The position numbers and the translations under genes were made by a program. Below are positions 11,559-56,994 of a stretch of 57,510 nucleotides of DNA, piece after piece; position 1 is the stretch's first letter; each line of letters starts with the position of its first letter. Source of the stretch: a virus; the IMG/VR virus record IMGVR_UViG_3300035698_011381, one strand, 5' to 3'. Below the pieces are notes generated by a model, which was not told where the DNA came from, ran no database searches, and was given only the letters and a program-made list of their open reading frames with translations.

Positions 11559-11576
11559 CCAGAAGGAGACCCAGAA

Positions 11577-15054: not shown

Positions 15055-15057
15055 ACC

Positions 15058-15243: not shown

Positions 15244-15257
15244 AAAATACAGAGAAA

Positions 15258-38200: not shown

Positions 38201-40906
38201 CTACGCGGTTAGGACTCGTGTACTGGCGACTGCGTGTGGGTAGTGGCCTAAAACCACGCTGTCAGCCTCGTCTGGAGACATCCCGAGCTCCCCATCGGAC
38301 GAATCAGCGTTGCGTTTTTTATACTCGTCCTTGGTTTCGATCTTAATTTTGCCGTGTTTGGTCACGGAATACAGTCGGTTTGTAAGCTGTTGAAAGAGAC
38401 TTTTATTGTACTGTAGGAACATACGGTGGGCACGAACCTCTTTAGCAAACAAGCACCACGCTTCCGTGATTTTATTGTCGTATTTTTGCGACTCGTGCGC
38501 CGTGTTTTGGGAATAGAACTCGTGCATCTTCCTTCCCATGCGTCTTTGACTGCCGAGCATCCCTGCGGCCATCTCTCCCATGCCGGAAGTATCCACAACA
38601 AACGTACATTCGCTGTTACCCCATCCCAGATGTTCTTGCAGTACGACAGCCCTGTCTATGGTGGCGTTCGGGTCGGTGCGGCTGTAGGCTTCTAGCTTCA
38701 GCATGATATTTCCTGAGAATGTAGAGATTGAGTTTTTGTCTCCGCCGTATCGAGCCAAGTCGATGCCGATTTGTTTCCGAACCGGCCGCATCTTGACATT
38801 TACCGCCAGTGCCGCCGCTTTTGCCTCTGGTTTGGTGCACGCGAGGAGGTCGTTTTCGTTGATAAGCACTGACGGGTCGGTGTGCGGAAATTCCCCGAGC
38901 ACGCGGACGCGGTAAACATCGGAATCCATGCCGAATTCCTCGGCGATTTCTTCATTTCGACGCTTGGAAAACCAAGGGGTTTCCGGTGTCTCTTCCCCAT
39001 TCCAGTGTAGGCAGTGCCAAGGGTTGTCCAGTTGGGAATGGAAACAGTCGAAGAAGGAGCAAGTTCGTGTGTTCGGGTTTCCGATCTGGAGCCATAAGAA
39101 GGTACCTTCGGCGTTGGACATCGTTCCCTTGATCGTGTCCATGATTCCTCGTGCGATACCGGAGCTTTCTTCGCACAACATGAGCAGGTAGGGGTTATGG
39201 ATTCCCTGAAACGCTTCTGGCCGGTTAGCGGTGGCAAGGTAGCACCCCCAGATGTCTTTACGACTTCCCATAATGCCGTACCCTGTGCCGGTGAAGTTGA
39301 AAAAGGAACTGATACGCGGGTCGCCTGATTGTATGCGTCCCTGAGCCTCTGAGAGCCATACGTTTTTACACTGCCGCATTGTCGGGGCTGTGACGACCGC
39401 GAGGCTCTTCGGATACTTGAGATTCCACCACGGCACGACTATGGCGTCGGCGGCGGTATTATGGACAACCAGATTTCTAGCCACGAAATTTCCATACTCT
39501 GGCACCTCTAAATCGTAGACGGGCGTGTTTGTCCTGTCTTGTGTGTTACTGACAACCCGCACCCAGTAAATATCGTTCGATGCCCACTTAGCGTGTTTGC
39601 CATCGTATCCTGTAGCCGATACGAGTTCTTTGAATTTTTTCCTGCTCAATAGAGAGTAGTTGCGCCCTCTCCACCCTTTTTCCCGCAGACGTGTCTTGGG
39701 GATACCTAATTCTTCCGCTATCTCGGTCATCGCTTTGTCGTCATAGGGAACAACGTCGGTGTTTGTGTTTTCTGGCTTACTCCAGATGTTCGTCAGATAG
39801 TTTACGTGTCCTTTTTTTATTTTATCAAACGAGTGGAAACCTTTAAGTATCTCCACGTAAAAGAGCACCAGAGATTCCCTGCCTGAGATACTTAGACGCC
39901 AAGAGTCAAATGTTTTCGTTCCCAATTTAACTTTTTTATACCTTTTCCTGCTGTGGATACCCCAAAAAAGTAGTGCTGTTTGCACATCGTCTATCAGCCC
40001 TTCACTGGCTAGGCAGATGCCTGCTCCATCCTTCTCAAAGTACCCGTCGCACAGCCACAAAGTAGCCAGTATCTCAGCCGCCCTGTCCTGCCGGATACTC
40101 CAAAATCTATCCGGCAATCTTTTGTGTTTGGCTAACGATCTTTTTGACCACCGAGACAACACATCGTTTGACGCTTTGTGGTGCACCCTTATGTCCCGAG
40201 CTTTGGAGGGCGACGAACTGTTGAGGTATGTCATCTCTAAAGAATTACAGCAGTGTAGGAAATCATCCAAACTATCGGAAGGTTCTTGCGTGAAACGAAC
40301 TCCGTGCTTGGCTGTTGTTCCTCCGTCGCCAAGGATGTAGCCTACCCACCTTACTTCCTCGCTGGGTACTTCTTCAGTTCCTACCCATTGAAGGTTACGA
40401 GGCATGGCTACAAGGCATCCGTTAGTTATCTCAGACGCTTCTTGCCATCCCGAACTAGTATATACAGGGTGGTCGGTGCTGAGCCGTGTAGACTGCCCTG
40501 AATCTGTTCTAATTGTTGTGCATTTCTTGTATCCTGATGGGAAACACCTAGCACTTGCTGTGTGTGTTTTTTCTGTTGCCTCATCCATGCTCCAAACAAG
40601 AAGGTCTTCTCGCCCTATAAGGTCTCTGATTTTTTTAACTCCCTCGGACGTTAGTATTTCGGTATCTCCGTGAAGGCATTTCCCCGGCCCCTGCCCGGAG
40701 CGCACGGCAACGTTCGAGTACCCTTCTTGAACAGCGTCGAGGAGCTGTTTCTGTTGCCACGTCGGTTTAAAATCCAGATAGAAGCACCAAGCATAGATAT
40801 CCTCAGTAATTTCTTTGTAGAAGTCGTGTAGGAAGTGCTTAGACTTAGAGGGCCGAAGGCCGAACATTTCGCCTTCTGACTGTCGCTTGTTTTCTATCCC
40901 GAACAT
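38201..40906 (-). CDS. terL: Terminase large subunit, interrupted by an intein
   Basis: Walker A SGQGPGK/T is split by the intein. Walker B is LLMLCEES. The RNase-H-like nuclease motifs are IGIDLARYGGD and VVDTSGMG. The spliced product would be 494 aa. Confidence 0.85.
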   Translation of the reverse strand: MFGIENKRQSEGEMFGLRPSKSKHFLHDFYKEITEDIYAWCFYLDFKPTWQQKQLLDAVQEGYSNVAVRSGQGPGKCLHGDTEILTSEGVKKIRDLIGREDLLVWSMDEATEKTHTASARCFPSGYKKCTTIRTDSGQSTRLSTDHPVYTSSGWQEASEITNGCLVAMPRNLQWVGTEEVPSEEVRWVGYILGDGGTTAKHGVRFTQEPSDSLDDFLHCCNSLEMTYLNSSSPSKARDIRVHHKASNDVLSRWSKRSLAKHKRLPDRFWSIRQDRAAEILATLWLCDGYFEKDGAGICLASEGLIDDVQTALLFWGIHSRKRYKKVKLGTKTFDSWRLSISGRESLVLFYVEILKGFHSFDKIKKGHVNYLTNIWSKPENTNTDVVPYDDKAMTEIAEELGIPKTRLREKGWRGRNYSLLSRKKFKELVSATGYDGKHAKWASNDIYWVRVVSNTQDRTNTPVYDLEVPEYGNFVARNLVVHNTAADAIVVPWWNLKYPKSLAVVTAPTMRQCKNVWLSEAQGRIQSGDPRISSFFNFTGTGYGIMGSRKDIWGCYLATANRPEAFQGIHNPYLLMLCEESSGIARGIMDTIKGTMSNAEGTFLWLQIGNPNTRTCSFFDCFHSQLDNPWHCLHWNGEETPETPWFSKRRNEEIAEEFGMDSDVYRVRVLGEFPHTDPSVLINENDLLACTKPEAKAAALAVNVKMRPVRKQIGIDLARYGGDKNSISTFSGNIMLKLEAYSRTDPNATIDRAVVLQEHLGWGNSECTFVVDTSGMGEMAAGMLGSQRRMGRKMHEFYSQNTAHESQKYDNKITEAWCLFAKEVRAHRMFLQYNKSLFQQLTNRLYSVTKHGKIKIETKDEYKKRNADSSDGELGMSPDEADSVVLGHYPHAVASTRVLTA
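39458..40678 (-). mobile_element. Intein (407 aa) with a LAGLIDADG homing endonuclease, inserted in the TerL P-loop
   Basis: Starts CLHGDTEILT (block A). STDHPVY is block B. VGYILGDGG and LWLCDGYF are LAGLIDADG motifs. It ends VYDLEVPEYGNFVARNLVVHN, followed by +1 Thr. Confidence 0.85.
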
Positions 40907-44360: not shown

Positions 44361-45638
44361 CTACTCGTCCTCCTCCGCTTCGTACTTCGCACTGGAAATG
44401 GCCGCGTCTCTTAACGCCGCTAAACCCTCGTTTTCTTCGTTGGCGGTAAGCCCGAACAACTGCGCCTTGAGTTTCAGGGTAGCGAGTTCCGCGCGGGGGT
44501 CGTCGGCAAGGTCGCACTTCTCGGCGATGGCGTCGATCTGTTTGATGAGGATAGCCTTCTCGACTTCTGCCGATTCGTTGTAAAGTAGTGGGCCGATGCT
44601 CTTCGCGGTCTTCACGATGTCGAGAGCCTCGAACCGTGTGTATCCGAAATAGTCCTGCATGTACTGCTCGGTCGAGCGCACGGACATCTGCATGAGCTTA
44701 TCGTAAATCAGGAGCACGAGCTCCTCTTCGTACATGACGAGTTCATCCCGCGTCGGCCACGCCACTCGCGCAATGGTAGGGTTCAGTAGCCCCGCTAATC
44801 CGTACTCCCCGCTCCACGGCTCCTGCGGCGCACCGTGATGTATCCCCACCTGTTCCGATAACACTGTCATCGCTTCACAGTACAGTATCAGGGGCATGTC
44901 CTTGGCGACGGAGTACTCGTCGGGGACGGCACGCGACAGCCTCCACCCCCAGATCCCCTCGGGTGTTTGCACAGGATAAAGATGGTCGGGGATTGGAGGC
45001 GGGAGGGTGGTGACTCCTTTAAAACCACGGTACCCGTCGTTCGTGTTAAACGTGTATCGGTCGCGCCCTGTCTCTGTCTTCAGTAAAATGTTCCGCGCAC
45101 CTCGCATGCCTGTGAGAAATCCCGACTGCGCTAGTTTCTGGGGGAGTGCCCACTGGTTCACGCCCGTGTTCCCGACGTTGAGTCCCAGCACGTTCTGTAG
45201 CATCTCGTAGCCGGTTAGTATCCCCCTCACCCGCGCCATCTGCCGCAGTAGTCGGTACGCCACCCGTATTCTGTAACCCTTTGTGTCGGAGAGGGTAAGC
45301 GTTCCTGCGGCGAGGAGCTTTTCGAGTTTTTGTGCCTTGGTGTGCCTGCTGGCTTTGTTCAACAGTGCTTGGTGTTGGATCTCGCCGGGGGTCGCGGGGG
45401 GAAATATCCCTGTCGCTCGCTCGCGCCGTACAGTTGACGGGAGGGACTCGTCCGCCCTCGCGCCGGAGAGATGCGACGGGAAGTTACCGGACGCCGCTTC
45501 TTCGATTGTCAGCCCGTGGGCGTACCGCGCTTGCGCCACGGCTCGGGAATACAGGTCTTCAGGGTCGAGTAGAATACTCTCTTCCGCCGTGGCGAACGTC
45601 ACCGCACTCGGCTCTAGTTTTAATAGGTCGGTCGTCAT
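44361..45638 (-). CDS. Hypothetical protein, first gene of the late block
   Basis: 425-aa ORF with an acidic C-terminus and no motif that I recognise. Confidence 0.55.
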   Translation of the reverse strand: MTTDLLKLEPSAVTFATAEESILLDPEDLYSRAVAQARYAHGLTIEEAASGNFPSHLSGARADESLPSTVRRERATGIFPPATPGEIQHQALLNKASRHTKAQKLEKLLAAGTLTLSDTKGYRIRVAYRLLRQMARVRGILTGYEMLQNVLGLNVGNTGVNQWALPQKLAQSGFLTGMRGARNILLKTETGRDRYTFNTNDGYRGFKGVTTLPPPIPDHLYPVQTPEGIWGWRLSRAVPDEYSVAKDMPLILYCEAMTVLSEQVGIHHGAPQEPWSGEYGLAGLLNPTIARVAWPTRDELVMYEEELVLLIYDKLMQMSVRSTEQYMQDYFGYTRFEALDIVKTAKSIGPLLYNESAEVEKAILIKQIDAIAEKCDLADDPRAELATLKLKAQLFGLTANEENEGLAALRDAAISSAKYEAEEDE

Positions 45639-45828
45639 AGGTTCAAGGGGTCTCCCGTTTATTTTTCCGGTGCCACTGTTACACGTCGCCTCCCTTTTAG
45701 TAAAGGAAAAAGTTACCCACTACGCGTAGCGTCCCCGATATTTTTCGACTGTGAAGGGGGTCGTTCTATTTCCAGATAAGGGGGCATATTTAAAGTAGAC
45801 TGTTTTCGAGTGGTTCGTTTAAAAAATC

Positions 45829-45881
45829 CCCCCGTGAAATTTTGAGCCCGAGAAATTGCCCCCGTGAAATTTTGAGCCCGA
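45829..45881. repeat. Two 23-bp direct repeats cccccgtgaaattttgagcccga, spaced 30 bp start to start
   Basis: Read directly at 45829..45851 and 45859..45881. Confidence 0.9.
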
Positions 45882-45940
45882 ATAAAAATCGACCTTCGAG
45901 GTTTGCGGGGGGGAAGTGCACCCGCGCCCGGATGCTCCAC

Positions 45941-45980
45941 GTAGCCGCTATCTCTTACACGTAGCCGCTATCTCTTACAC
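45941..45980. repeat. 20-bp tandem repeat x2 (gtagccgctatctcttacac), followed by a GC-rich gcccgccccgcccgcccg tract
   Basis: Read directly. Confidence 0.9.
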
Positions 45981-46072
45981 GCCCGCCCCGCCCGCCCGAT
46001 TAAAACAGATTTGAAAACATAATATTGACACGTTACTCTTTATCTGTTACGCGTGCCCGCGTTCCTATAAGC

Positions 46073-46295
46073 GCGGGCCGGTATACGCGGGCCGGTATAG
46101 GATACAGGATACAGCGGGCCGGTATAGGATACAGGATACAGCGGGCCGGTATAGGATACAGGATACGCGGGCCGGTATACGCGGGCCGGTATACGCGGGC
46201 CGGTATAGGATACAGGATACAGCGGGCCGGTATACGCGGGCCGGTATAGGATACAGGATACAGCGGGCCGGTATAGGATACAGGATACGCGGGCC
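46073..46295. repeat. Iteron-like array: 10 full copies plus one partial copy of GCGGGCCGGTATA, separated by either C or GGATACAGGATAC(A)
   Basis: Core copies start at 46073, 46087, 46114, 46141, 46167, 46181, 46195, 46222, 46236 and 46263, with a partial copy at 46289. Confidence 0.95.
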
Positions 46296-46552
46296 CCGTG
46301 ATCGTACCTTTTACATTTTTAAAAACTAGGCCTGATTTGAAGATCACGAAAAAAGGCCGGGTTGCTCTTGTAAATTTAAAAAACACTACTTTTCGGGATA
46401 TAGGGGGGAAAATACGGTTTACGCTTGTATTTTTAAAAAAGGGCCCTTTTTTGAAGATCAATATAATGACCCCTTCACAATTCCAAATAACCACGTATTT
46501 TTAATTTTACACAATCTTAAAAGGTAACTAATATATATTTGAAAACTTTTAA

Positions 46553-46582
46553 TATATACCATATAACCCATAGTGGTATATA
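46553..46582. repeat. Inverted repeat tatatacca-N12-tggtatata in the AT-rich segment
   Basis: Perfect 9-bp arms. The related tatatataccata recurs near 46706. Confidence 0.8.
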
Positions 46583-46783
46583 TAAAACATATTTGAGTTA
46601 AATAGTTTTTCGCGCTCGATCGCCACAATTCCGGATACCCGGCACTTTTTAAATTTACAAGCCGATATTCCCTTTTATCTTTGTAAGTGTTTCATTTTAG
46701 CTTTTTATATATACCATAGGAATCAGCACTATCCGTCTATAGCGCTCTATTTTTAAAAAACAAAAGAAAATTGAAAAAGAGGG

Positions 46784-46811
46784 TTGACATATAGATGGGG
46801 CGTGCTAAATT
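46784..46811 (+). promoter_or_regulatory. Sigma70-like promoter candidate for the early block
   Basis: TTGACA, a 16-nt spacer containing TGc, then TAAATT (an extended -10-like element), about 50 nt upstream of the first RBS-supported early ATG. Confidence 0.45.
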
Positions 46812-46862
46812 GACATTATGAAAACAGCCCAAAACAGAAACCAACCAAAAGGAGTCAAGATT

Positions 46863-47087
46863 ATGCGAGAGTCAATAGAAATAGTTAAACTAGCGCCAAG
46901 CCGCTACGAAGTGCAGATAGTTAAAGATGACCCTAAATTTGATAAGAGCTACAGCATAGCGGGCGAATACAAAACCCTCTCTATTGCTATCAGTACCGCA
47001 AAGCGTATTGCAAAAAGAAATGGCGGAATGATAATAGGCAGGCCGTCCACAGCAAACGAAAAGAGAGCCGCAAAGAGGATTGCCTAA
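46863..47087 (+). CDS. Early hypothetical protein
   Basis: AAGGAG RBS before the ATG at 46863, in frame with track ORF 46818..47087. Confidence 0.55.
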   Translation: MRESIEIVKLAPSRYEVQIVKDDPKFDKSYSIAGEYKTLSIAISTAKRIAKRNGGMIIGRPSTANEKRAAKRIA

Positions 47088-47125
47088 CCATGTTCAAGAC
47101 AGAAACCAAACCAAAGGAGAACATC

Positions 47126-47296
47126 ATGACAATTAGAACGCTCAAAGCAATCAATAAGAAAACCGGAGAAACGAAATCATTCTGTGATTGTGATTGCAAC
47201 AGACTGATAAAGCGGCGGGATGAGTTCATATCCGACATGACAGATCGCGGGGAATACTGGACTTACGCCCCAGTCTCTATTGTATCGGGAATCTAA
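47126..47296 (+). CDS. Early hypothetical protein
   Basis: AAAGGAGA RBS before the internal ATG of track ORF 47090..47296. Confidence 0.5.
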   Translation: MTIRTLKAINKKTGETKSFCDCDCNRLIKRRDEFISDMTDRGEYWTYAPVSIVSGI

Positions 47297-47342
47297 AAAC
47301 CCGCCCACGCAAGGGGCAAAGTAAACGCATAAAGGGGAAAAG

Positions 47343-47435
47343 ATGAAACGTGAATCTGAACTCATAAACGAGCTAATAGTAATAATCGTATCGGCTGTAA
47401 TCGTAGCACTAATCATTGCTGTAAAAACAGCGTAA
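47343..47435 (+). CDS. 30-aa hydrophobic peptide
   Basis: AAAGGGGAAAAG leader. MKRESELINELIVIIVSAVIVALIIAVKTA. Confidence 0.4.
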   Translation: MKRESELINELIVIIVSAVIVALIIAVKTA

Positions 47436-47452
47436 AGAATAAAGGGGAAAAA

Positions 47453-47626
47453 ATGAAAGCACCTACAGAAGCACTTAATAAGAAAATAAACGAGCTTGCA
47501 ACTCTATGTAATAACATTAGCACCTACCTTTCCGGGTGCCATAGCGAAAACGAACAAACAGCCGCACTTATAAAGAGTATAGTCACTAGGCTTTGGGATG
47601 AATTAGACACTATCCCAGAAAAGTAA
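47453..47626 (+). CDS. Early hypothetical protein (57 aa)
   Basis: AAAGGGGAAAAA leader. MKAPTEALNKKINELATLCNN... Confidence 0.45.
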   Translation: MKAPTEALNKKINELATLCNNISTYLSGCHSENEQTAALIKSIVTRLWDELDTIPEK

Positions 47627-47649
47627 TTAAACGAAAAAAAGGGGAAAAG

Positions 47650-47802
47650 ATGACACTTGAAAAACAGATTATGAGAGAAGAATTAACCATGTTGAAAGAA
47701 GAACTAAAAGAAGCGGTTGCGCTATACCGCCGCGAGCCTAACGACTGGAATGGAGAGTCCGTTTCCGATTTACGCGAGGAAATCGCAAAGCTAGCACGCT
47801 AA
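47650..47802 (+). CDS. Early coiled-coil protein (50 aa)
   Basis: AAAGGGGAAAAG leader. MTLEKQIMREELTMLKEELKEAV... Confidence 0.45.
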   Translation: MTLEKQIMREELTMLKEELKEAVALYRREPNDWNGESVSDLREEIAKLAR

Positions 47803-47850
47803 CCGGTTCGCCCCACGCAAGGGGCAAAGTAAACGAAAAAAGGGGAAAAG

Positions 47851-48027
47851 ATGACACTTGAAAAACAGATTAGAAACGCATACGAGAAAGCCTATGGGGT
47901 CAAAACAGTTGACTATGAAGGCGAAATTTCCAAAGAAAAAAATACAATCGCCGTCGAAATTTGCGAAGATGGAACGGTTTTTGAACATGAGAAAGGTGGC
48001 GTTTCTTACGTTAAAATAATAATTTAA
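47851..48027 (+). CDS. Early hypothetical protein (58 aa)
   Basis: Same leader and the same first 7 codons (MTLEKQI) as 47650..47802. Confidence 0.45.
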   Translation: MTLEKQIRNAYEKAYGVKTVDYEGEISKEKNTIAVEICEDGTVFEHEKGGVSYVKIII

Positions 48028-48054
48028 AATGAGATTCAACTAAAAGGGGAAAAG

Positions 48055-48327
48055 ATGAAAGCCACGAAATTAAAGTACCTAACAGATAAAAACGGAAAAG
48101 AGCCTTTCTTTTCAGACTTGAAAGAAAAAGGGCGTATAGTAACAGAGCCACTTCATTGTCACACTGCCGGACTTATGCAAACTTCGACAGGATACGGTTC
48201 AAAACTAGCTACGCCCTACAAAATAAATGACTGTAACAGACTGAAAAGAATTTACGCCATTTGTTACAGCAACGCTTCCAGTTTATATATTTTCCGCAAA
48301 GACAAGCGCGTCTTTATCCATAGCTAA
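48055..48327 (+). CDS. Early hypothetical protein
   Basis: AAAGGGGAAAAG leader; MKATK start. Confidence 0.55.
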   Translation: MKATKLKYLTDKNGKEPFFSDLKEKGRIVTEPLHCHTAGLMQTSTGYGSKLATPYKINDCNRLKRIYAICYSNASSLYIFRKDKRVFIHS

Positions 48328-48357
48328 CAGCATAAAGAAAGAAGGGGAAAAGAAACC

Positions 48358-48606
48358 ATGAAAACGAAACTAGAAAAACAGGCCAAAGGGGAAAAGATGA
48401 CAAAGACAGAATCAAGAATATCAACAGGGAAAAATGATTATCTCTCTATCACCTTGCGGGGGAAGTTCGCGGCAGAATACAAATTCGACTTCATACTCTT
48501 GAAATGTTTTGTTTGCATTGGAGCAGATTTGTTTCCCTCAGCAATCCACGAATACACCGACAAGCAAGATATGTTTGCCGACATTGAAAAACTACGCAAC
48601 GCATAA
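48358..48606 (+). CDS. Early hypothetical protein
   Basis: GAAACC-ATG-AAA leader. An alternative start at 48396 also has a GGGGAAAAG leader. Confidence 0.5.
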   Translation: MKTKLEKQAKGEKMTKTESRISTGKNDYLSITLRGKFAAEYKFDFILLKCFVCIGADLFPSAIHEYTDKQDMFADIEKLRNA

Positions 48607-48616
48607 AGGGGAAAAG

Positions 48617-48793
48617 ATGAAAGCCACGAAAACGCGCTACAAGAAAATTGATCTATACGTTTACAATCCTGTTACAAAACAATTTGCATACTACGCATCC
48701 ACTACATGGCACGGGACACGCAAGAGCGCAAAAAGGATGCTAGTTGATAAACTAATGATTAAGCCGGAACACGTCAAAGCATCAGTGGCATAA
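48617..48793 (+). CDS. Early hypothetical protein (58 aa)
   Basis: AAAGGGGAAAAG leader; the MKATK start is identical to that at 48055. Confidence 0.5.
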   Translation: MKATKTRYKKIDLYVYNPVTKQFAYYASTTWHGTRKSAKRMLVDKLMIKPEHVKASVA

Positions 48794-48814
48794 ACCCGAA
48801 AAGGAAAAGAAACC

Positions 48815-48925
48815 ATGAAACCGAAAAAAAGAAACACGCCCGGCACGTACAAAACCCCTTCGATCTTCACCCTCTTAAAAGAGTATTTTAAAGAGTACCG
48901 CGCCCGGCACGCCCGAAACATTTAA
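48815..48925 (+). CDS. Possible 36-aa basic peptide
   Basis: AGGAAAAGAAACC-ATG leader; it terminates at the TAA inside the first 27-bp repeat unit. Confidence 0.3.
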   Translation: MKPKKRNTPGTYKTPSIFTLLKEYFKEYRARHARNI

Positions 48926-48976
48926 AACAGACTGAAACCCCGAAACATTTAAAACAGACTGAAACCCCGAAACCCC
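48915..48976. repeat. 27-bp tandem repeat x2.3 (gaaacatttaaaacagactgaaacccc)
   Basis: Units at 48915..48941 and 48942..48968, then a partial gaaacccc. Confidence 0.9.
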
Positions 48977-48994
48977 ATAGAAGGAAAAGAAACC

Positions 48995-49864
48995 ATGAAA
49001 ACGAAAAAAAGCAAAATAGAACAAGCTACAGTAGAAACATACTTGCCGATATTTCCCGGATTTTACGGTACACTATACGGCGCGGAGGATTCCGACGACG
49101 AAGAGCAGGCGATAAACGGCCTGTTAGAGCCCGCGGGATTTGCGCCCTCTCAAATAAACCCACTCTCAAAGGCTGTTTTCGACTTTGGAAGCGGCGCTGT
49201 AGAATTCGACTATTCCACATACTACCGCGATTATCTGGAAGAAATATCGGAAACCGTAGCGGCGGAATTGGAAGGTGTGCCGGGTTTCGTTTCTATGGAA
49301 CTACAAGGAATGAGGAGCCCGAAAGAATACAATTTTGCAAATGATTCCGGCGACGTTATTTTAAACCTATCAAATGAAAGGGCCTTTCGGGCGTGGATTT
49401 TAAAACAGTGCCGAATTGATCGTGCCGGGTTTGCGGAATACATACGGAAAAAATACACGTCTCGAAGCGGTTTTATGTCTTTTTATTCCAGTGACTCGAA
49501 AGACTGGATAAATGACATACGGGCCGGGCTCGACGAATTAGACGGGCACAAACTAGGCAGACTGTTAGACTATTATTTTTCCGAAATATCGGAGTTTGAC
49601 GACTGGGCACTTTACGAAACAGCAGAAAAGCCTTACTTGTCGGAATACATGAGTGGGCCGGTAGTCGATATTTTTGAGAAGGAAATGGGAAACCTACCGG
49701 AAAAGGTTTCCGGTATACTCGAAAGCATAAACGCGGGCCGGGAACAATTGAAAGCGTACGCGGAAAAGATGCCTTGTAACGCGGCAGCCCGCCAAGAGAC
49801 CGGGCTAATCAAAAACGAAACGAAACTTTATAAGGCGGCAGTCGAAACACTTATAGAAGCGTAA
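48995..49864 (+). CDS. Early hypothetical protein (289 aa)
   Basis: Cassette leader. It starts MKTKKSK...YLPIFPGFYGTLY and is acidic. Confidence 0.6.
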   Translation: MKTKKSKIEQATVETYLPIFPGFYGTLYGAEDSDDEEQAINGLLEPAGFAPSQINPLSKAVFDFGSGAVEFDYSTYYRDYLEEISETVAAELEGVPGFVSMELQGMRSPKEYNFANDSGDVILNLSNERAFRAWILKQCRIDRAGFAEYIRKKYTSRSGFMSFYSSDSKDWINDIRAGLDELDGHKLGRLLDYYFSEISEFDDWALYETAEKPYLSEYMSGPVVDIFEKEMGNLPEKVSGILESINAGREQLKAYAEKMPCNAAARQETGLIKNETKLYKAAVETLIEA

Positions 49865-49899
49865 AACAGACTCCAAACCCCGAAAAGGAAAAAGAAACC

Positions 49900-50244
49900 A
49901 TGAAAGCAACATTTAAGAAAATCGGAACAGACTACTTGCCCGCCATTAAGCACAAAAGCGGCAGACTTGAAACCCTTCACGGAGACGCGCTAGCTACTAC
50001 CGCAACGGCTACGAAGTACGCTCAGTTTGAAATAAACGAGCGTAGCCGGCGGCACGCTAAAGCAACCCCGGCACCCGTGGAAACGGCCCCGGCCCCGGCT
50101 TGGATAACTCCAAACCAATTCGCGGCACTATGCGACGAATACCTTATTCTTCCAGCCTTGGCACTCGAAAACGAGACTGTAAAAGGTGCCGTGCATCAAA
50201 AAGATTTAGACGCTTTGAAAGAAGCACTTGCAACTGAATTCTAA
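49900..50244 (+). CDS. Early hypothetical protein
   Basis: Cassette leader aacagactccaaaccccgaaaaggaaaaagaaacc-ATG; MKAT start. Confidence 0.55.
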   Translation: MKATFKKIGTDYLPAIKHKSGRLETLHGDALATTATATKYAQFEINERSRRHAKATPAPVETAPAPAWITPNQFAALCDEYLILPALALENETVKGAVHQKDLDALKEALATEF

Positions 50245-50277
50245 ACAGACTCCAAACCCCGAAAAGGAAAAGAAACC

Positions 50278-50526
50278 ATGAAAGCAACATGCCTAAATAT
50301 CACACGAGACCGCAACGGAAACAAAACCGTTTCTTTCAAGTCATGCACCGGAAAGCGCGGTTTTTCTATCCAGACTAGCGGCAACACGCCCGGCCTTAAC
50401 AGACTGCCAACCGGGGAAACTATCGCGGCACATTCCCGCGTCGAATTGTGGAAAGAATTTCTGGAATATGTCCGGGACTTTGGCACCGCCCGGCAGAAAA
50501 GTTTTTTCGAACTGACCGACATTTAA
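50278..50526 (+). CDS. Early hypothetical protein
   Basis: Same cassette leader; MKAT start. Confidence 0.55.
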   Translation: MKATCLNITRDRNGNKTVSFKSCTGKRGFSIQTSGNTPGLNRLPTGETIAAHSRVELWKEFLEYVRDFGTARQKSFFELTDI

Positions 50527-50576
50527 AAACACAAACCAATACGCGCCGGGCGTATCCCGGCAGAAAAGGAAACCAC

Positions 50577-50903
50577 ATGAGCCGCTCAATAAGCTACATA
50601 GTAACGTTTAACAATAACAAAACGAAAATGATAGCGGGACTGTTTAACCCGCACGGGGCGGAACACTTCACATCCCATTTTAACGGGGCGGAACAGACCG
50701 CCTTTGTAAAAAAGATCACAACTTTTGAGACTGGAAACTTGAAAAGCATAAAATCCCGCCGGTTAGGGTTCAATGCTTCATGCTGTGACTCTAAAAAACC
50801 GCATTTAGGCGGTATTGAACTTTTGGAATATAAATTTCCCGCGTTCCGTGGGACATTAGACAAAGTGTTTCAGGCTGTAAACGAGTTTCGGGGCAACTCA
50901 TGA
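50577..50903 (+). CDS. Early hypothetical protein
   Basis: The internal ATG of track ORF 50448..50903 is preceded by a GC hairpin and AAAAGGAAACC. Confidence 0.5.
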   Translation: MSRSISYIVTFNNNKTKMIAGLFNPHGAEHFTSHFNGAEQTAFVKKITTFETGNLKSIKSRRLGFNASCCDSKKPHLGGIELLEYKFPAFRGTLDKVFQAVNEFRGNS

Positions 50904-51100
50904 CTCTCTTACAGGCAACGGCCCGCGCCCGCGCCCTTGCGCCGTCTAACGGGTACGCGCTAGCAATACATATAGCCGCAAACGAAAGCGGCTACAGCAC
51001 GGGGAAAATAAGCGCGGAACTTCGTAAAGGCCGCAAGCGTAAAAAGTACGATTGCAAACCCGCGCCGGGCGTGCAGCAGTGGAAACCGTACGCGGATTAG
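50900..51100 (+). CDS. Early hypothetical protein
   Basis: ATGA coupling to the upstream stop. Confidence 0.5.
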   Translation: MTLLQATARARALAPSNGYALAIHIAANESGYSTGKISAELRKGRKRKKYDCKPAPGVQQWKPYAD

Positions 51101-51165
51101 ACTGAAACCCCGAAACATTTAAAACAGACTGAAACCCCGAAACATTTAAAACAGACTGAAACCCC
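51099..51165. repeat. 27-bp tandem repeat x2.5 (same unit as 48915..48976)
   Basis: A partial unit at 51099..51111, then full units at 51112..51138 and 51139..51165. Confidence 0.9.
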
Positions 51166-51182
51166 GAAAAGGAAAAGAAACC

Positions 51183-51356
51183 ATGAAACCGAAGCCACTT
51201 ACAAGCCGGGACTATAACGTAGCGTTTAAGATCTATATGGAAACCCTCAAAAAATTGAAACACAAAGACACGAGAGAAAACCGCGCGGCATTCGGCAAGG
51301 CATCCCGCGAATGTTCACGAGTTGCGGCCGTGTGCTTTGCGCCTATACCCTTTTAA
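51183..51356 (+). CDS. Early hypothetical protein (57 aa)
   Basis: Cassette leader. MKPKPLTSRDYNVAFKIYMETLKK... Confidence 0.45.
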   Translation: MKPKPLTSRDYNVAFKIYMETLKKLKHKDTRENRAAFGKASRECSRVAAVCFAPIPF

Positions 51357-51442
51357 AACAGACTAAAACCCCGAAACATTTAAAACAGACTGAACCCCCG
51401 AAACCCCGAAACATTTAAAACAGACTGAACCCCCGAAACCCC
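51351..51442. repeat. 35-bp tandem repeat x2 plus a partial unit (27-bp variant gaaacatttaaaacagactgaaccccc plus gaaacccc)
   Basis: Units at 51373..51407 and 51408..51442, preceded by a partial copy at 51351..51372. Confidence 0.9.
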
Positions 51443-51458
51443 GAAAGGAAACGAAACC

Positions 51459-54143
51459 ATGAAAACGAATACACCTATCAGCACACCCGCCGAAACACTC
51501 GACCTATCAGAAACCACGTACCCCGGCCAGCGTACCCGCCCCGCCGAAGATGTAGAAAATACCGAGATTCTTAAATGGGCAAGCGAAGCCGGGCCGCGAC
51601 AGACTGCCGACGTAAAAAAAGCCTTCGGTAAGGTACTCGGGGCCGGAAGCGGCACGCGGGTCCTGTCCTCGTGGCCCGACGGCTCAGAACATGAGAGCGT
51701 ACAGTATATCATGGGATGCCCGACCGACGAGGAACAGACACACAAAAACAAACAGACTGACGCGCTCAATGTTTTACACGCGGCGCACGGCGGGAAAATC
51801 ACGCGGGAAAATTGCCGCGCCCTCATAGCCGCCGCGCTAGAACTAATCCCAACCCTTAGAGACTGCCAACCGGTACGCGACGAGCGCAAGAGCATAGAGC
51901 AACACGCGACGGAAGCCGAAGAGCGGAAAGCCGCGCAGGAAAAGAGGGAAGAAAAACAGGCAGAAGAAAAAGCGAAAAAATGGGCGGAAGAGGAGACCGC
52001 CGCGCTTGATTACCCCTACCTTTCCCGCGTAGGGGGGAGCGGGGGCGGAAAAGATGCCGCTAAAAATATAAGACTGACCTTGAAAAAGGAGTTTCCCGGT
52101 ATTCGTTTCTCGGTAACTTCTGACTATTCTAGAGTTCAAATAAACTGGAACGACGGCCCGACCGCCGACCAAGTCGAAGCCTTCACAAATAACTTTAAAG
52201 AAGGACACTTTGACGGGATGACAGACAGTTACAACTACAACTCGACCGCGTTTAACGACGCTTTTGGGGGATGTCGATACATTTTCACGAGCCGAAACAC
52301 GCGGGAGCTTCTGCAGACTGTAAAAGCCGCACTTCCAGAAATGGGCAACCTCGACGACTGGGAAACGGAACAACATAAAAACCGGAAAGCGCGGGAGCTG
52401 ATTAGTAAAACAGACTTGACCGGAAAAGGTGCCTTTCTCGCAGTGATCGACCCCGAAGAGGGGACGGGGTGCCACGTTGTAGAGCTCGCGCTAAAGTTTG
52501 AAGAGACCACGGCACCCGCGACCGACGCCGCCCGTCAAACGCCCGCCACGGGGCCGGTGACTATCGAAGAGCACACACACACGAAAAAAGGCTTTCAGAT
52601 GTGGCTTGTGAGACTATCCGACCGCGTAGAGCGCGACGAGTTCCAAGCACTCAAAAGCACCGCGCAGGGGCTGGGGGGTTGGTACTCTCGCAAGTGGGGC
52701 ACGACCCCCGCAGGCTTCGCGTTTAAGACTCCCGAAGCCGCGCAGACTTTCGCGGACGGCATCGCGGGCACCGACCCCGAGCCGACGGGCACCGACGCGC
52801 CGCCGACAGACTCCAAAGCCGAAGCAATCCCAGCACCTTACAACGTCCAGAGTGCCGACTACACGCCCGAGGAGAAAGAAGTCAAAGCGAGAACCGTGGG
52901 ACAACTGCCGCACCCTCTACGCCTTCCGGCCCTCGCGGACATCGGGCGGGCTATCGGAACGGAAAAGGAAATAAAGTTCGGCTGGTGGCTGTCTATGAGT
53001 CTCGACCTCACACGGGGCGAAGAGGACGGGCACCCGCTCAAAGAGTACATGAGGACGACCGGCGACAATCTGCCGCTCTCGCTTCTCAACTGGAAGCCGG
53101 AGCCGGAGCCGGAGCCGGAACCCTACGGCACCGACCCGCACGAAACAACAGACTGCGACACGCCCCGCCCAAACTCAGCCGCTAACAGTGCCGAGAAGCT
53201 CCGCGCCATGGCCGACCGCCTGACTTCCCAGATCGAAGATAAAACCCGCGACATGACCCAGATCCCGACGCCCAAGCGCAATTTAGAATATAAGGCGCGG
53301 ATGATCGAAGGGCACCACCTCGAACGGGTACAGACTGCCGCGCGGGTTCTGGCCGACGGTCTCGAAGCGGGCACCCTCCCGCCTATCTTGCAGACCGTCC
53401 GAACGAAAAAGGACTTGCTCAAATACACGGAGACACGTTCCGACATGTCCGGGGGTTATTATTCCATTGTTGACACCGGCGAGTTTTCCGACACGTCACC
53501 GGCGGCGGTAGCGTTACTGACTCTCCTCAAAGAGGCCAGCGACCCCGAAGCGGAAGCGGCACGGAAAAAGGAGACTGAATTAAAGAATAAAATTCTGAAC
53601 CTCACGGGGCAGAAAATCCCCGGATTCTTCCCGACGCCGTGCGCCGTAGCGGAGAAAATGCTCGACGCCCTCGACATTCAAGAAGGGGAGACTGTTCTTG
53701 AGCCTTCCGCCGGTACCGGGAACCTAGCAGAACGAGCCCGAGACGCGGGAGGGGTCGTGACGTGTGTAGAAATACGCCCGAGCCTGTGCGAGATCCTAGA
53801 ACTAAAAGGGTTCATTACTTTCTGCGAAGATTTTACAAACCCCAACGGGGAAGATACTGGAATCTCTCGATTCGATAAAGCGATAATGAACCCGCCCTTT
53901 GAAAAGGGACAGGATGCCGACCACATCCGCGCCGCTTACCACTGCCTTAAAGACGGCGGACGGCTCGCGGCTATCGCTGGGGAAGGTATTTTCTTCCGCA
54001 CTGACTCGAAGGCTACCGCCTTCCGCGACTGGCTCGAAGAGGTAGGCGGCACGTCGGAACAACTCCCGGCGGGGTCGTTCCAAGGTACCGGCGAAGTATC
54101 CCAGACCGGTACAGATACGCGCCTCGTCATCATTACACGCTAA
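51459..54143 (+). CDS. Large polyvalent early protein with a C-terminal gamma-class N6-adenine DNA methyltransferase domain
   Basis: C-terminal motif I VLEPSAGTGNLA precedes motif IV IMNPPFEKG. The upstream modules include GIRFSVTSDYSRVQINWNDGPTADQVEAFTNNF and HTHTKKGFQMWLVRLSDRV...GGWYSRKWG, linked by EPEPEPEP. Confidence 0.75.
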   Translation: MKTNTPISTPAETLDLSETTYPGQRTRPAEDVENTEILKWASEAGPRQTADVKKAFGKVLGAGSGTRVLSSWPDGSEHESVQYIMGCPTDEEQTHKNKQTDALNVLHAAHGGKITRENCRALIAAALELIPTLRDCQPVRDERKSIEQHATEAEERKAAQEKREEKQAEEKAKKWAEEETAALDYPYLSRVGGSGGGKDAAKNIRLTLKKEFPGIRFSVTSDYSRVQINWNDGPTADQVEAFTNNFKEGHFDGMTDSYNYNSTAFNDAFGGCRYIFTSRNTRELLQTVKAALPEMGNLDDWETEQHKNRKARELISKTDLTGKGAFLAVIDPEEGTGCHVVELALKFEETTAPATDAARQTPATGPVTIEEHTHTKKGFQMWLVRLSDRVERDEFQALKSTAQGLGGWYSRKWGTTPAGFAFKTPEAAQTFADGIAGTDPEPTGTDAPPTDSKAEAIPAPYNVQSADYTPEEKEVKARTVGQLPHPLRLPALADIGRAIGTEKEIKFGWWLSMSLDLTRGEEDGHPLKEYMRTTGDNLPLSLLNWKPEPEPEPEPYGTDPHETTDCDTPRPNSAANSAEKLRAMADRLTSQIEDKTRDMTQIPTPKRNLEYKARMIEGHHLERVQTAARVLADGLEAGTLPPILQTVRTKKDLLKYTETRSDMSGGYYSIVDTGEFSDTSPAAVALLTLLKEASDPEAEAARKKETELKNKILNLTGQKIPGFFPTPCAVAEKMLDALDIQEGETVLEPSAGTGNLAERARDAGGVVTCVEIRPSLCEILELKGFITFCEDFTNPNGEDTGISRFDKAIMNPPFEKGQDADHIRAAYHCLKDGGRLAAIAGEGIFFRTDSKATAFRDWLEEVGGTSEQLPAGSFQGTGEVSQTGTDTRLVIITR

Positions 54144-54185
54144 CCCACTACCGCGCCGGGCGGACTCCCGGCAGAAAGCGGAACC

Positions 54186-54299
54186 ATGAAAGAAAAACTA
54201 ATTATGTTACTGCAAGTTGTAGCGGGCACGATAATCATAGCCGCGCTCGCGGGCTCTGTCGGCCCGATATATGACGCGGTGCAGGCGTTCATTAAATAA
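54186..54299 (+). CDS. 37-aa hydrophobic peptide
   Basis: GC hairpin plus a GGAACC-ATG-AAA leader. MKEKLIMLLQVVAGTIIIAALAGSVGPIYDAVQAFIK. Confidence 0.4.
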   Translation: MKEKLIMLLQVVAGTIIIAALAGSVGPIYDAVQAFIK

Positions 54300-54314
54300 A
54301 AGGAGACTGAAAAT

Positions 54315-54491
54315 ATGAACGTAAATTTAAAAGGGTTAGCGGCTGACGCGTGGTTCAACGAGATACCGCTTGACGATCCGTACGCCCCGTGCCCGTGCGG
54401 ATGCGGTAAGAAATGGAAGTTCATAAAGGCTGACTACGAAGAACACGAGGCCCGATTTATCAAGGCTTTTATCTTAAACGAAACCAAATAA
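54315..54491 (+). CDS. Small protein with a SEC-C-like metal-binding motif (58 aa)
   Basis: AAGGAGAC RBS; CPCGCGKKWKF. Confidence 0.5.
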   Translation: MNVNLKGLAADAWFNEIPLDDPYAPCPCGCGKKWKFIKADYEEHEARFIKAFILNETK

Positions 54492-54506
54492 AAGGAGACT
54501 GAAACC

Positions 54507-54665
54507 ATGGAAAAACCACCCGGAGTAATCATCGCACCCGTCCCCAAGGGGCACGCCCGAAGGAGACTGACCAGCTTTATAAGGCAGGCCGCGCTCCTCG
54601 GGCTACTCTTCGCCGTGGCGGGCACATTCGCCGCCGTCGCACTCAAAACGTTAATCAGTAAATAA
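54507..54665 (+). CDS. 52-aa membrane peptide
   Basis: AAGGAGAC RBS; LLGLLFAVAGTFAAVAL TM segment. Confidence 0.45.
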   Translation: MEKPPGVIIAPVPKGHARRRLTSFIRQAALLGLLFAVAGTFAAVALKTLISK

Positions 54666-54678
54666 GGAGACTGGAAAC

Positions 54679-55233
54679 ATGGAAAAAGTAACATTCAAAG
54701 AAGTACAAATCGGAGAAACCTACAGACTGCGTGCGGACGGCTGTTCCTACAAAAAGAACGGCCCCAACACGGGACTAATCCAAGGCAAGGCACGAGAAGA
54801 GGAGTACGGCGTCCGTCAATCGAAAGAGGTGTGCGTAAAGACACCAAGCGTCATCCACCTAAAGAAAACGAACTTCAGGCTTGTTTCCAACGGGGAAAAG
54901 TTCTGGACTCCGTTCGGCAATCACTTCAGACGATACACCAAGGGATCGCCCGACGAAGCACGCAACGACGCTACAGGCACGATCACACGTTTTGATGCCC
55001 ATAGAACAGTGCACGTTAGTCAGCTTCCTACAAAGGTCGTCGAGCTCCCCGCCCCGAAAAAGGTAAAGGAAAAGCCCGTCGTGACTGTGGCCTTTGAAGG
55101 CTTCCAGTTCCGGGAGGGCAAGGTAGGCGGCGAGACTATCGAAAACATCGAGACGTTGATTAAGACGCTCCAGAAAAAACGCCGACTGTACAAGCGGTTC
55201 GCCCTCCTGCACGGATGGATGCCCTACAAGTAA
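54679..55233 (+). CDS. Hypothetical protein
   Basis: AAGGAGAC RBS; 184 aa. Confidence 0.6.
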   Translation: MEKVTFKEVQIGETYRLRADGCSYKKNGPNTGLIQGKAREEEYGVRQSKEVCVKTPSVIHLKKTNFRLVSNGEKFWTPFGNHFRRYTKGSPDEARNDATGTITRFDAHRTVHVSQLPTKVVELPAPKKVKEKPVVTVAFEGFQFREGKVGGETIENIETLIKTLQKKRRLYKRFALLHGWMPYK

Positions 55234-55292
55234 ACGAATCAGAGGGAGAGGGGCGATCCCCTCCCTCGTAACCCTCCAAGGAGACACTGACC

Positions 55293-55445
55293 ATGAAAAA
55301 CTACCGACCCAACGACGACGAGCCCGCCCCGCACTTCGAGAAGATCAAAAGCCACAAGCACCAGCACGGGAAACACGAACGCCTGAACAAGGACACACGC
55401 GCCCGCAGACTCGAACGCATCCGAATTAAAGAGGACATACAATAA
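55293..55445 (+). CDS. 50-aa highly basic/His-rich peptide
   Basis: AAGGAGAC RBS. MKNYRPNDDEPAPHFEKIKSHKHQHGKHERLNK... Confidence 0.4.
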   Translation: MKNYRPNDDEPAPHFEKIKSHKHQHGKHERLNKDTRARRLERIRIKEDIQ

Positions 55446-55504
55446 GACCTTGACGTACAGAAAAATGTAAAGTAAAAGGGATAGGAAATTAGAGGAGACT
55501 GAAA

Positions 55505-55828
55505 ATGAAAAAGAAAACGTATTACGCGAACAACGGGGCCGTCGCGGAGGTAGAAACAACTGAAACAACGGAGACTGAAAAAGGGGAACCGATTAGCCAG
55601 AAAGTTTACGACGCCCTGCATGCCTTTTACAGGGTGGGCAACGCAGACCCTCGATACCTCTACCTCGGGTACTTAGAAGCCGAACAGTTAAGGGCGCACG
55701 TGGCGTTCGTACTACAGGAAGACGCCGCCTTCCTGAGCGGGGGGAAGTACGAGGGCATGGAAGTGATGTGCGTGAGCACCATCAGCCACTTGTCTATCGG
55801 CGGGGTAAAAGAGAAGGAGACTGCCTAA
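55505..55828 (+). CDS. Hypothetical protein
   Basis: GAGGAGAC RBS; 107 aa. Confidence 0.55.
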   Translation: MKKKTYYANNGAVAEVETTETTETEKGEPISQKVYDALHAFYRVGNADPRYLYLGYLEAEQLRAHVAFVLQEDAAFLSGGKYEGMEVMCVSTISHLSIGGVKEKETA

Positions 55829-56523
55829 TGAACAAGAAAAAAATACATGAATTATCGGAACGGCTGAAGGAGTTGAAGGAGAGCCACGCGTACTTAGAAT
55901 TTATGGCACCGTCTAAAGACATGTGCGTCGCCCTCTCTGCCCTTGAGAATAACATCATCACCACCACGAAGGAGCTGTATAAGGCTCAGGATGTGGACTA
56001 CTTCCCTACCGCTATCGAGGACGGCGGGGTCGTTATGTACTTATTGTTCCGTAAAGGGGGCTTAGAGCCCGTCGTCGCGCGACTCGACCCATCCGTCGCG
56101 GCAACCATCAAAGAGGCCAAAATCACGCTATTCGCGTCCTCTTCAGGGCGTTCGTGGTTCCTCGCCGCTAAGGAGACGGATGGAACGGTGTTCCGCGTAG
56201 CCCGTACGGTGAAAGGGATAACCGACCCCGACAAGATCGTACTTCCCAAAAACGAGGACGTGTTCGATTGCCGCCTTAAAAATCTCGAAGAAACCACACG
56301 CTCGGATGCGACTCGTAAGAGGGTAGACGAAAACGGCGATAGAGAGAACGGCATCCAGAAAGTCGGGGAGAAGTACCGCGTAAACGTGTACGTCCCCGAC
56401 CGGGGCTGTGCGGTGTACGGGGGGCTACACGGAGACATCAAGGACGCTCGGGAAGCTCGGGACGGTATTTTAGACAAGGAGAGAGCAGACCACCGACCAA
56501 AGAACAAAGGGAGAAACCAATGA
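55828..56523 (+). CDS. Putative DNA-binding protein with a C-terminal AP2-like domain
   Basis: TAATG coupling. GIQKVGEKYRVNVYVPDRGCAVYGGLHGDIKDAREARDGIL resembles the AP2 strand-strand-helix pattern. No HNH motif was seen. Confidence 0.4.
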   Translation: MNKKKIHELSERLKELKESHAYLEFMAPSKDMCVALSALENNIITTTKELYKAQDVDYFPTAIEDGGVVMYLLFRKGGLEPVVARLDPSVAATIKEAKITLFASSSGRSWFLAAKETDGTVFRVARTVKGITDPDKIVLPKNEDVFDCRLKNLEETTRSDATRKRVDENGDRENGIQKVGEKYRVNVYVPDRGCAVYGGLHGDIKDAREARDGILDKERADHRPKNKGRNQ

Positions 56524-56717
56524 GCGACAAAAAGACACCCAATAGCCTCGATGAACTGGTTAGCATGCCTGTTGTGAAAGTGAATCACGGCAAAGCATTC
56601 GGGAACAAAGATTGGTTCACCTATTACTGTGGATCGTGCAAAAAACAACTTGATTCAACTCACATGCGCAAACCTTGCTCTTGTGGCGTTGTTGCCGTGT
56701 GGAATGCTAACGTTTGA
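56520..56717 (+). CDS. Small zinc-ribbon protein
   Basis: ATGA coupling; YYCGSCKK...CSCG. Confidence 0.5.
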   Translation: MSDKKTPNSLDELVSMPVVKVNHGKAFGNKDWFTYYCGSCKKQLDSTHMRKPCSCGVVAVWNANV

Positions 56718-56741
56718 GTTGACTTTCCGAAGGAGGAAACT

Positions 56742-56927
56742 ATGAAAGAAAAAACGAGCGTTACTGAGGTAAAGTCCAATTCCTTGTTGGATTTGTGGAG
56801 TTGCCGAATCGAACAGTACCAAGTTAAAAGGAGAGATGCCTCTTCATCTTCTGTACAGCGTCAATACACAATCAGGATTCGTGAAATACAGAAGTGCATA
56901 TCGGAGCTGAACAAATACAACGCCTGA
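56742..56927 (+). CDS. Hypothetical protein
   Basis: GGAGG RBS; 61 aa. Confidence 0.5.
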   Translation: MKEKTSVTEVKSNSLLDLWSCRIEQYQVKRRDASSSSVQRQYTIRIREIQKCISELNKYNA

Positions 56928-56994
56928 AATGAGGGGCGGGTAATCCCGTACTCTCTATTTCTTTGTTCGATTCTTAATTACGGAGGAAATGAAA

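Follow-up and report, generated by a model that had tools for sequence, protein, structure and literature searches.

A non-conserved tandem array beside a conserved non-coding element in the divergent control region of a tailed phage family

Genome and gene content

The stretch of DNA analysed here (57,510 nucleotides, hereafter the window) is the circularly assembled genome of a tailed phage. Its two ends are an exact overlap of 127 bp, which identifies it as a circular contig from a k=127 assembly with a unit genome of ~57.4 kb. The genes lie in two divergent arms, and the array of tandem repeats considered in this study is situated between them. The arms and two genes that bear on the interpretation of the array are as follows.

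46863 to 57510, then 1 to 16376, plus strand: early and replication genes
45638 down to 16360, minus strand: structural genes
1107-3698, plus strand: DUF5906 primase-helicase, ~11.7 kb from the array on the circle
38201-40906, minus strand: terminase large subunit, ~5 kb from the control region

The plus-strand arm encodes small early proteins, a methyltransferase-domain protein, the DUF5906 primase-helicase, a PD-(D/E)XK nuclease, a TET-associated glycosyltransferase, an SNF2-type helicase and a family A DNA polymerase. The minus-strand arm encodes a conserved protein of 425 aa, a lectin-fold protein, an intein-bearing terminase large subunit, a ClpP-type protease, a lambda-E-type capsid protein, tail proteins and a portal. 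The terminase intein carries a LAGLIDADG homing-endonuclease domain (residues ~84-483); the homologue from the related lineage L001 has none, and this intein-free protein (504 aa) matches phrog_2 at 3.7e-26. The portal gene (16989-18389, minus strand) is at the distal end of the structural arm, with ~20 kb between it and the genes for terminase and capsid; for a phage whose head genes are lambda-like, this order is unusual.

Two products of the plus-strand arm, the TET-associated glycosyltransferase (6801-7709, plus strand; PF20691, 1.3e-48) and an 894-aa protein with an LPD29 domain and a C-terminal DNA-methyltransferase-like region (51459-54143, plus strand), suggest that the phage DNA may contain hypermodified cytosines; the small ORFs nearby include no recognisable TET/JBP dioxygenase. 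A full-length phage tmRNA gene is present at 10820-11203 (plus strand), in a stretch without ORFs shortly before the DNA polymerase gene. It matches Rfam RF00023 over model positions 1-374 of 374 (130 bits against a gathering score of 47, E 1.4e-50), and ARAGORN reads its tag peptide as AKTKVLGFIGGAPALAIAA, up to the stop.

Phage GenBank records contain no DNA match to the control region and no protein match to the 425-aa protein, and their only match to the polymerase is a partial one of 27.5%. The family appears from these searches to be one without a cultured or deposited relative. The 425-aa protein has no Pfam, PHROG or PDB sequence match; its AlphaFold model (pLDDT 57) is predicted, with low confidence, to be mostly helical, and found no PDB fold match at E <= 0.001. 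An AP2-like protein, which the original prediction had named as a candidate for binding the array, was not identified among the proteins scanned.

The control region and its array

The array sits in a 1.2-kb gene-free gap, between the end of the minus-strand block at 45638 and the start of the first plus-strand gene at 46863. It had been described from the sequence as lying between divergent gene blocks and next to an AT-rich stretch, and both statements are borne out: GC content is 0.61 in the array and 0.32 in the DNA that adjoins it (46296-46817). From left to right, the gap and the genes that border it comprise the following features.

44361-45638, minus strand: first leftward gene, 425 aa, conserved in the family and used to find relatives
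45823-45881, plus strand: two direct repeats AAAAT/TTGCCCCCGTGAAATTTTGAGCCCGA with a 30-bp period, the window's A-tract/GTGAAA boxes
45876-45946, plus strand: conserved ~70-bp non-coding block ending in the octamer ACGTAGCC (45939-45946), alignable across lineages
45938-45981, plus strand: 20-bp tandem duplication CACGTAGCCGCTATCTCTTA (2.2 copies), which doubles the octamer; start of a repeat-prone zone
45980-46072, plus strand: linker from block to array, with a (CGCC)n-like run (45980-45997) and then unique sequence containing TTAAAACAGATTTGAAAAC
46073-46295, plus strand: tandem array of ten exact cores GCGGGCCGGTATA and a truncated eleventh, from exact matches and Tandem Repeats Finder (TRF)
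46296-46783, no strand assigned: AT-rich segment (GC 0.32) with direct and inverted repeats and promoter-like TTTACA boxes
46784-46811, plus strand: best sigma-70-type promoter match for the rightward early genes, TTGACA-16-TAAATT, with TG before it
46863-47087, plus strand: first rightward (early) gene, 74 aa, an orphan whose homologue search returned only itself

Exact matching reproduces the array as first described. Ten cores of 13 bp, all on the plus strand, start at 46073, 46087, 46114, 46141, 46167, 46181, 46195, 46222, 46236 and 46263, i.e. at successive distances of 14, 27, 27, 26, 14, 14, 27, 14 and 27 bp. Neighbouring cores are separated either by a single C (short junction, S; 14-bp unit) or by GGATACAGGATAC(A) (long junction, L; 26/27-bp unit), and the last core is followed by a 13-nt spacer and the truncated eleventh copy, GCGGGCC, at 46289-46295; the distances give back the reported junction order S L L L S S L S L L. 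Such a density of cores is far above that of shuffled sequence: with up to two mismatches there are 11 matches in the window against 1.03 expected, a number reached in none of 100 shuffles. The single match beyond the array, at 31242, has two mismatches, and neither dispersed cores nor sub-words of the core were found as operator-like sites elsewhere in the genome. TRF, which had been suggested as a check, detects the array with a period of 27 and a score of 224. Its GC skew is +0.28. The two ORFs predicted across it had been dismissed as artefacts, in agreement with their periodic translations (QRAGIGYRI three times in one, ILYPIPARC repeats in the other).

The copies are identical, and so are the spacers. 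The long spacer is a doublet of GGATACA, which the end of the core, CGGTATA, resembles closely. Removal from the 26-bp long junction of 12 nt (GGATACAGGATA), which lie between ATA microhomologies, yields the short junction exactly, and the two junction states are therefore one slippage step apart. In its head-to-tail arrangement of high-identity units the array conforms to the description of a minisatellite.

Other classes of element were rejected. A structured RNA is contradicted by an Rfam search of 45000-47500 (E up to 1), which gave no match, and by folding that is not unusually stable on either strand (z-scores of -2.35 for DNA of the plus strand and +0.71 for RNA of the minus strand). 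CRISPR arrays have repeats of ~23-50 bp and unique spacers of similar length; the window has 13-bp repeats and just two spacer states, both repetitive. A partition centromere of the parC, parS or tubC type was rejected, as the flanking genes have no ParA, ParM or TubZ match.

Further repeats were observed in and around the control region. The AT-rich segment contains an 18-bp perfect palindrome, AAAAAAGGGCCCTTTTTT, and two copies of an element ATTTTTAAAAA...TTTGAAGATCA (at 46429-46460 and 46315-46346), as well as inverted TATATACCA / TGGTATATA repeats at 46548-46587 and 46703-46716; this palindrome and these repeats are candidate regulator sites or promoter modules. Among the early genes, a 27-bp tandem repeat with the core TTAAAACAGACTGAAAC recurs at 48912-48973, 51099-51169 and 51352-51446 (plus strand; seven copies with at most one mismatch against 0.12 expected), directly before the ribosome-binding site and ATG of three genes (starts at 48995, ~51183 and 51459). 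It forms a repeated gene-start cassette and is possibly a promoter or regulator site. A related word, TTAAAACAGATTTGAAAAC, is found at 46001, 55 bp upstream of the array. Finally, the two halves of the array's short junction, CCGGTATAC and CGCGGGCCGGG, occur 14 nt apart at 49710-49742 (plus strand), inside the coding sequence of a 289-aa gene (48995-49864), with rough odds of ~0.01 and possibly by coincidence.

Assemblies and copy number

The longest exact repeat inside the array is 67 nt. Many of its 31- and 55-mers are non-unique, and all k-mers of at least 77 nt are unique, so that an assembly at k=127 can resolve it. Contigs of the same strain, with flanks 99.96-100% identical to those of the window, present the array in different states.

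L005: JGI contig, 57473 bp; array identical to that of the window, ten cores
L006: Logan contig, k=31; breaks inside the array after two cores
L007: MEGAHIT contig, k=141; three cores, equal to the window minus 46073-46221

The difference of 149 bp in L007 is a deletion between two of the 67-nt exact internal repeats. The ten-core form can be assembled and has been seen twice; the three-core form is either a real deletion allele or an assembler collapse at low k. Because this contig of the same strain carries only three cores, the copy number of the array is not secure.

An origin of the array itself, or of its length, in the assembler's treatment of a shorter repeat is hardly credible. Such an artefact would be compatible with the three-core MEGAHIT contig, the break in the k=31 contig and the non-unique 31- and 55-mers. 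However, a k=127 assembly resolves a path on which every k-mer of 77 nt or more is unique, the JGI contig has an identical array despite its different length, and assemblers tend much more to collapse repeats than to lengthen them into an irregular succession of S and L junctions. Moreover, relatives from unrelated samples carry arrays at the same position.

In one of these relatives, L009, a run of Ns at ~2113-2210 (locus coordinates) has the same ~55 nt on both sides and adjoins a 13-bp array. It is a scaffolding artefact, and arrays of this kind break assemblies.

Comparison across the family

Relatives were found through the 425-aa neighbour, for which there are 21 homologues with 46-74% identity. 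Upstream DNA was recovered for eleven lineages, in eight of which it covers all or most of the gap. In a search for closer relatives, the first early gene led only back to itself. A viral contig collection contained no exact array unit and no instance of the conserved-block pattern, and searching it with the 425-aa protein, as one sequence or as a profile, gave no relative; a metagenome scan returned four short contigs only. The conserved-block pattern had four matches in a genome collection, which were rejected as chance occurrences (inside coding DNA, with no flanking-gene homologue) and therefore give no clue to the host.

Nine lineages with readable control regions share a common layout. 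In the orientation of the window, the leftward gene is followed by two to four A-tract/GTGAAA boxes, the ~70-bp block ending in ACGTAGCC, tandem repeats, AT-rich DNA with promoter-like boxes, a TTGACA-type promoter (TTGACA-16-TAAATT in the window, with TTGACA at the equivalent place in four relatives) and the first early gene. The block has the consensus ...TGAGGTAGGGGAGTGTAC-N9-11-AAAGCTCC and is the only non-coding segment conserved between lineages in pairwise BLAST comparisons. All 11 relatives whose recovered DNA reaches far enough upstream have the octamer ACGTAGCC. An anchored alignment gives 1.0-1.15 bits of information for each position of the 60 nt that precede ACGTAGCC and 2.0 within it, and the value drops immediately afterwards to 0.3-0.4, about the noise level for ten sequences. 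By this alignment, conservation appears to end exactly at ACGTAGCC.

What follows the octamer differs from lineage to lineage.

Window: 20-bp duplication including the octamer, then the 14/27-bp array
L001: (GCCGT/GTCGT) x9
L002: 39 bp x2.1
L008: GCTGG-type x12-15
L009: 13 bp x3.3, adjoining a scaffold gap
L010: 43 bp x2.6
L014: 49 bp x1.9
L015 and L016: short GGGTCC and CTGCCGGGC repeats

A TRF array with a score of at least 50 starts within 400 bp downstream of ACGTAGCC in seven of the nine lineages, and the other two have short repeats below this threshold that follow the octamer directly. The background in the same contigs is ~0.05 arrays per 400 bp (P ~2.5e-8), a contrast that is somewhat inflated as this background is mostly coding DNA. 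The presence of some array directly after the conserved element thus appears from these comparisons to be a family trait. The units themselves are not shared: their lengths are 5, 6, 13, 14/27, 39, 43 and 49 bp according to lineage, and their sequences differ too. The array of the window is real, and it is the non-conserved, fast-evolving part of the region.

The window core was also considered as a family-wide site and rejected, since it is absent from the relatives save for one 10-mer, GCGGGCCGGT, in the L009 array (0 of 300 shuffles; marginal after ~40 tests). L008 and L009, whose proteins are 78% identical, have GGGCTGG-type repeats in common, and words resembling ACAGGATA occur in five of the nine lineages, including the window, L010 and L015; the latter are suggestive only. 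The 7-mers that control regions share are mostly generic AT-rich words.

A replication origin of the iteron type

The original prediction preferred an iteron-type origin of replication. On this account, the cores would be lineage-specific sites for an initiator, most likely the DUF5906 primase-helicase by way of a variable C-terminal domain, and its binding would melt the AT-rich DNA; arrays would differ between lineages as the sites and the specificity domain co-evolve, in the manner of SaPI Rep and ori. We regard this as a doubtful, though not negligible, explanation. The setting is favourable, in that the GC-rich array lies where the gene arms diverge and adjoins 520 bp of AT-rich DNA (GC 0.32), as expected for the unwinding region of such an origin; the same DNA carries the promoter-like boxes. 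However, all cores are on the plus strand and to the left of the AT-rich DNA, and the other side has no match at up to two mismatches.

The cores themselves are a poor fit. Iterons of the plasmid or lambda type are ~17-22 bp long, with dyad symmetry or a degenerate consensus, and are phased. The 13-bp cores of the window are perfectly identical rather than variants of a degenerate consensus, have no dyad symmetry and show no helical phasing, their starts being scattered over the 10.5-bp helical repeat at spacings of 14, 26 or 27 bp.

The phage does encode a primase-helicase, the C-terminal ~110 residues of which are its least conserved part, but this only candidate initiator is encoded ~11.7 kb from the array. 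Furthermore, unit length ranges from 5 to 49 bp, yet the primase-helicase aligns end to end, and no domain swap matching the differences between arrays was seen between lineages. Co-evolving pairs of binding domain and site keep their footprint length, and the range of unit lengths is therefore hard to fit with a homologous DNA-binding domain that co-evolves with its site. Known initiator-iteron pairs are lineage-specific (PMC9371898), and the recurrence of an array at the same position in seven of nine lineages would be in line with an origin. Nevertheless, the conserved A-tract boxes and block are better candidate sites for a conserved initiator than an array that is not conserved.

Nucleotide skews are uninformative as locators of an origin. 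AT skew has its minimum at 45.8-46.8 kb, as an origin at the array might produce, but this minimum coincides with the switch in transcription direction and is therefore not independent evidence. Cumulative GC skew, which had been put forward as a means of placing the origin, has its extremes at 18.2 and 55.4 kb, away from the array.

Packaging, regulation and protection of DNA ends

The array could alternatively be a packaging recognition site, with multiple sites for the small terminase subunit next to a cleavage site. Repeated terminase sites with bent A-tract DNA are found in other phages, as in lambda cosB, SPP1 pac and P1 pac, and the array adjoins a conserved, asymmetric element whose abrupt conservation edge is a possible cleavage site. 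We nonetheless think it improbable that the array itself has this role: its unit lengths are not conserved, and the conserved A-tract/GTGAAA boxes on the far side of ACGTAGCC fit terminase binding better than a non-conserved array does. The gene for the terminase large subunit and the small ORFs before it lie ~5 kb away, a distance that weakens the case for a lambda-like cos next to the terminase genes and leaves a T7-like arrangement with a terminal repeat unaffected.

Equally improbable, in our estimation, is a bank of operators or a titration site, in which the cores would bind a lineage-specific early regulator, either for control of the divergent promoters or to keep the regulator sequestered. 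The position in the control region between the divergent arms, with the early sigma-70-type promoter ~500 bp downstream, would suit such a role, and the fast-evolving orphan early genes nearby could encode a matching binder. However, the array overlaps neither promoter, core-like sites are found nowhere else in the genome, a search of the small proteins encoded next to the array detected no DNA-binding domain, and perfect identity with a variable copy number is atypical of operators.

A further, very unlikely alternative is that the slot is a selected protective or decoy array at a genome end, tuned to the host, in which each lineage would place many copies of a short host-specific signal, for instance the Chi sequence recognised by RecBCD/AddAB, immediately inward of the DNA end. 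Chi, a short and G-rich signal, varies from one host group to another, a variation that would explain arrays in the same place with different sequences. The GCTGG-type array of L008 (4526-4606, locus coordinates) does contain three exact copies on one strand of GCTGGTGG, the E. coli-type Chi octamer. Against this, a known Chi occurs in L008 alone, and the strand bias of the arrays is not uniform, that of L002 being C-rich on the same strand.

Comparison with known repeat systems

The array most closely resembles, by analogy, the short-repeat arrays beside the terminal repeat of phage T7. Dunn and Studier reportedly described in 1983 that such arrays, SRL and SRR, flank the terminal repetition; we know of no function that has been firmly assigned to them. 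In both cases a non-coding, irregularly spaced array is built on a sub-repeat of ~7 bp and lies between a conserved terminal element and early promoters for the host RNA polymerase, at the head of the early genes, and the window phage, like T7, is of a virulent type with its own family A DNA polymerase. The likeness has its limits. The T7 heptamers are imperfect, whereas the copies in the window are exact and combine 13-nt and 7-nt modules. The T7 arrays adjoin the terminal repeat, whereas the terminal element of the window is putative and lies in a circular contig. The two phages are also unrelated, that of the window having a lambda-E-type capsid and tail-tip and baseplate proteins, and a phage RNA polymerase was not found in it.

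Among iteron systems, those of the SaPIs consist of 6-12 copies of 5-6 bp immediately downstream of rep, arranged to both sides of a central AT-rich region in opposite orientations and numbering two or more per side (PMC9371898). The window shares with them lineage-specific short direct repeats beside an AT-rich region and a primase-helicase-type protein that could self-initiate, but its cores are 13 bp long, share a single orientation and lie on one side only, with the helicase gene 11.7 kb away. The iterons of lambdoid O proteins are direct repeats flanked by an AT-rich region, and vary between four and six copies among relatives; they are ~19-bp imperfect inverted repeats, intrinsically bent, located inside the O gene and conserved among relatives (PMC7466680). 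In contrast, the array of the window has none of these properties. The ICP1 satellite PLE carries several families of repeats in a non-coding region, of which one is a true iteron, semi-palindromic around a poly-A tract and served by a RepA_N initiator (PMC7145576). No RepA_N-like protein was found in the window phage; the PLE case illustrates that a functional iteron is not necessarily the most prominent repeat.

With minisatellites (VNTRs), the array has in common identical head-to-tail units, composite sub-repeats, a lack of conservation in relatives and, possibly, differences in copy number between samples. It differs from ordinary neutral tandem repeats in that arrays recur, in most lineages of the family, at one position right after a conserved octamer.

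Proposed interpretation

Our leading explanation, which we advance tentatively and at somewhat less than even confidence, is that the array is a hypervariable minisatellite that expanded recently and occupies a slot prone to repeats, next to a conserved cis-element, the latter probably marking a genome end, the boundary of a terminal repeat or the start of replication. We hold the descriptive parts of this account with much greater confidence than the whole, and the cut site with less.

The part of the region recognised by proteins would presumably be the ~130 bp to the left of the array, i.e. the two to four A-tract/GTGAAA boxes and the ~70-bp block. The abrupt edge of conservation at an asymmetric octamer, together with duplications that start there, suggests that ACGTAGCC is a site of cutting, nicking or the start of synthesis, whether as genome end, terminal-repeat boundary or origin. 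DNA just past ACGTAGCC would be duplicated over and over, and the array would have been built from the 13-nt module and the 7-nt module (GGATACA) by slippage or unequal exchange; a 149-bp deletion between the 67-nt repeats would turn the ten-core form into the three-core form. Rapid turnover by these processes is indicated by the perfection of the copies, by the single step that separates S from L junctions and by the possible variation between ten and three cores. That the copies are identical, spacers included, argues for recent expansion or homogenisation and not for separate binding sites maintained over a long time.

The array would then be a product, and possibly a beneficiary, of a cutting or start activity at ACGTAGCC. 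If active at all, it may work through its repetitiveness or length, acting as a spacer or buffer that keeps the conserved element apart from the early promoters, and would at most be the landing pad of a lineage-specific accessory protein. The occurrence of arrays at this one position in most lineages might also result from selection for a platform of repeated binding sites, as opposed to a mutational hotspot, and the GGGCTGG-type repeats of L008 and L009 and the ACAGGATA-like words hint at some constraint on sequence, which tells against the explanation that we favour.

Significance

The array probably accounts for assemblies that break or collapse in this family, and could serve to tell strains apart if the variation in copy number is real. 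Its appearance alone does not warrant annotation as an origin. The anatomy of the family's control region is now concrete, consisting of a conserved ~130-bp element that ends in ACGTAGCC, followed by a slot that generates repeats, with this element as the leading candidate for a genome end, packaging site or origin in the family. If the slot is selected rather than prone to mutation, it would represent a cis-element that works by repetitiveness and not by sequence.
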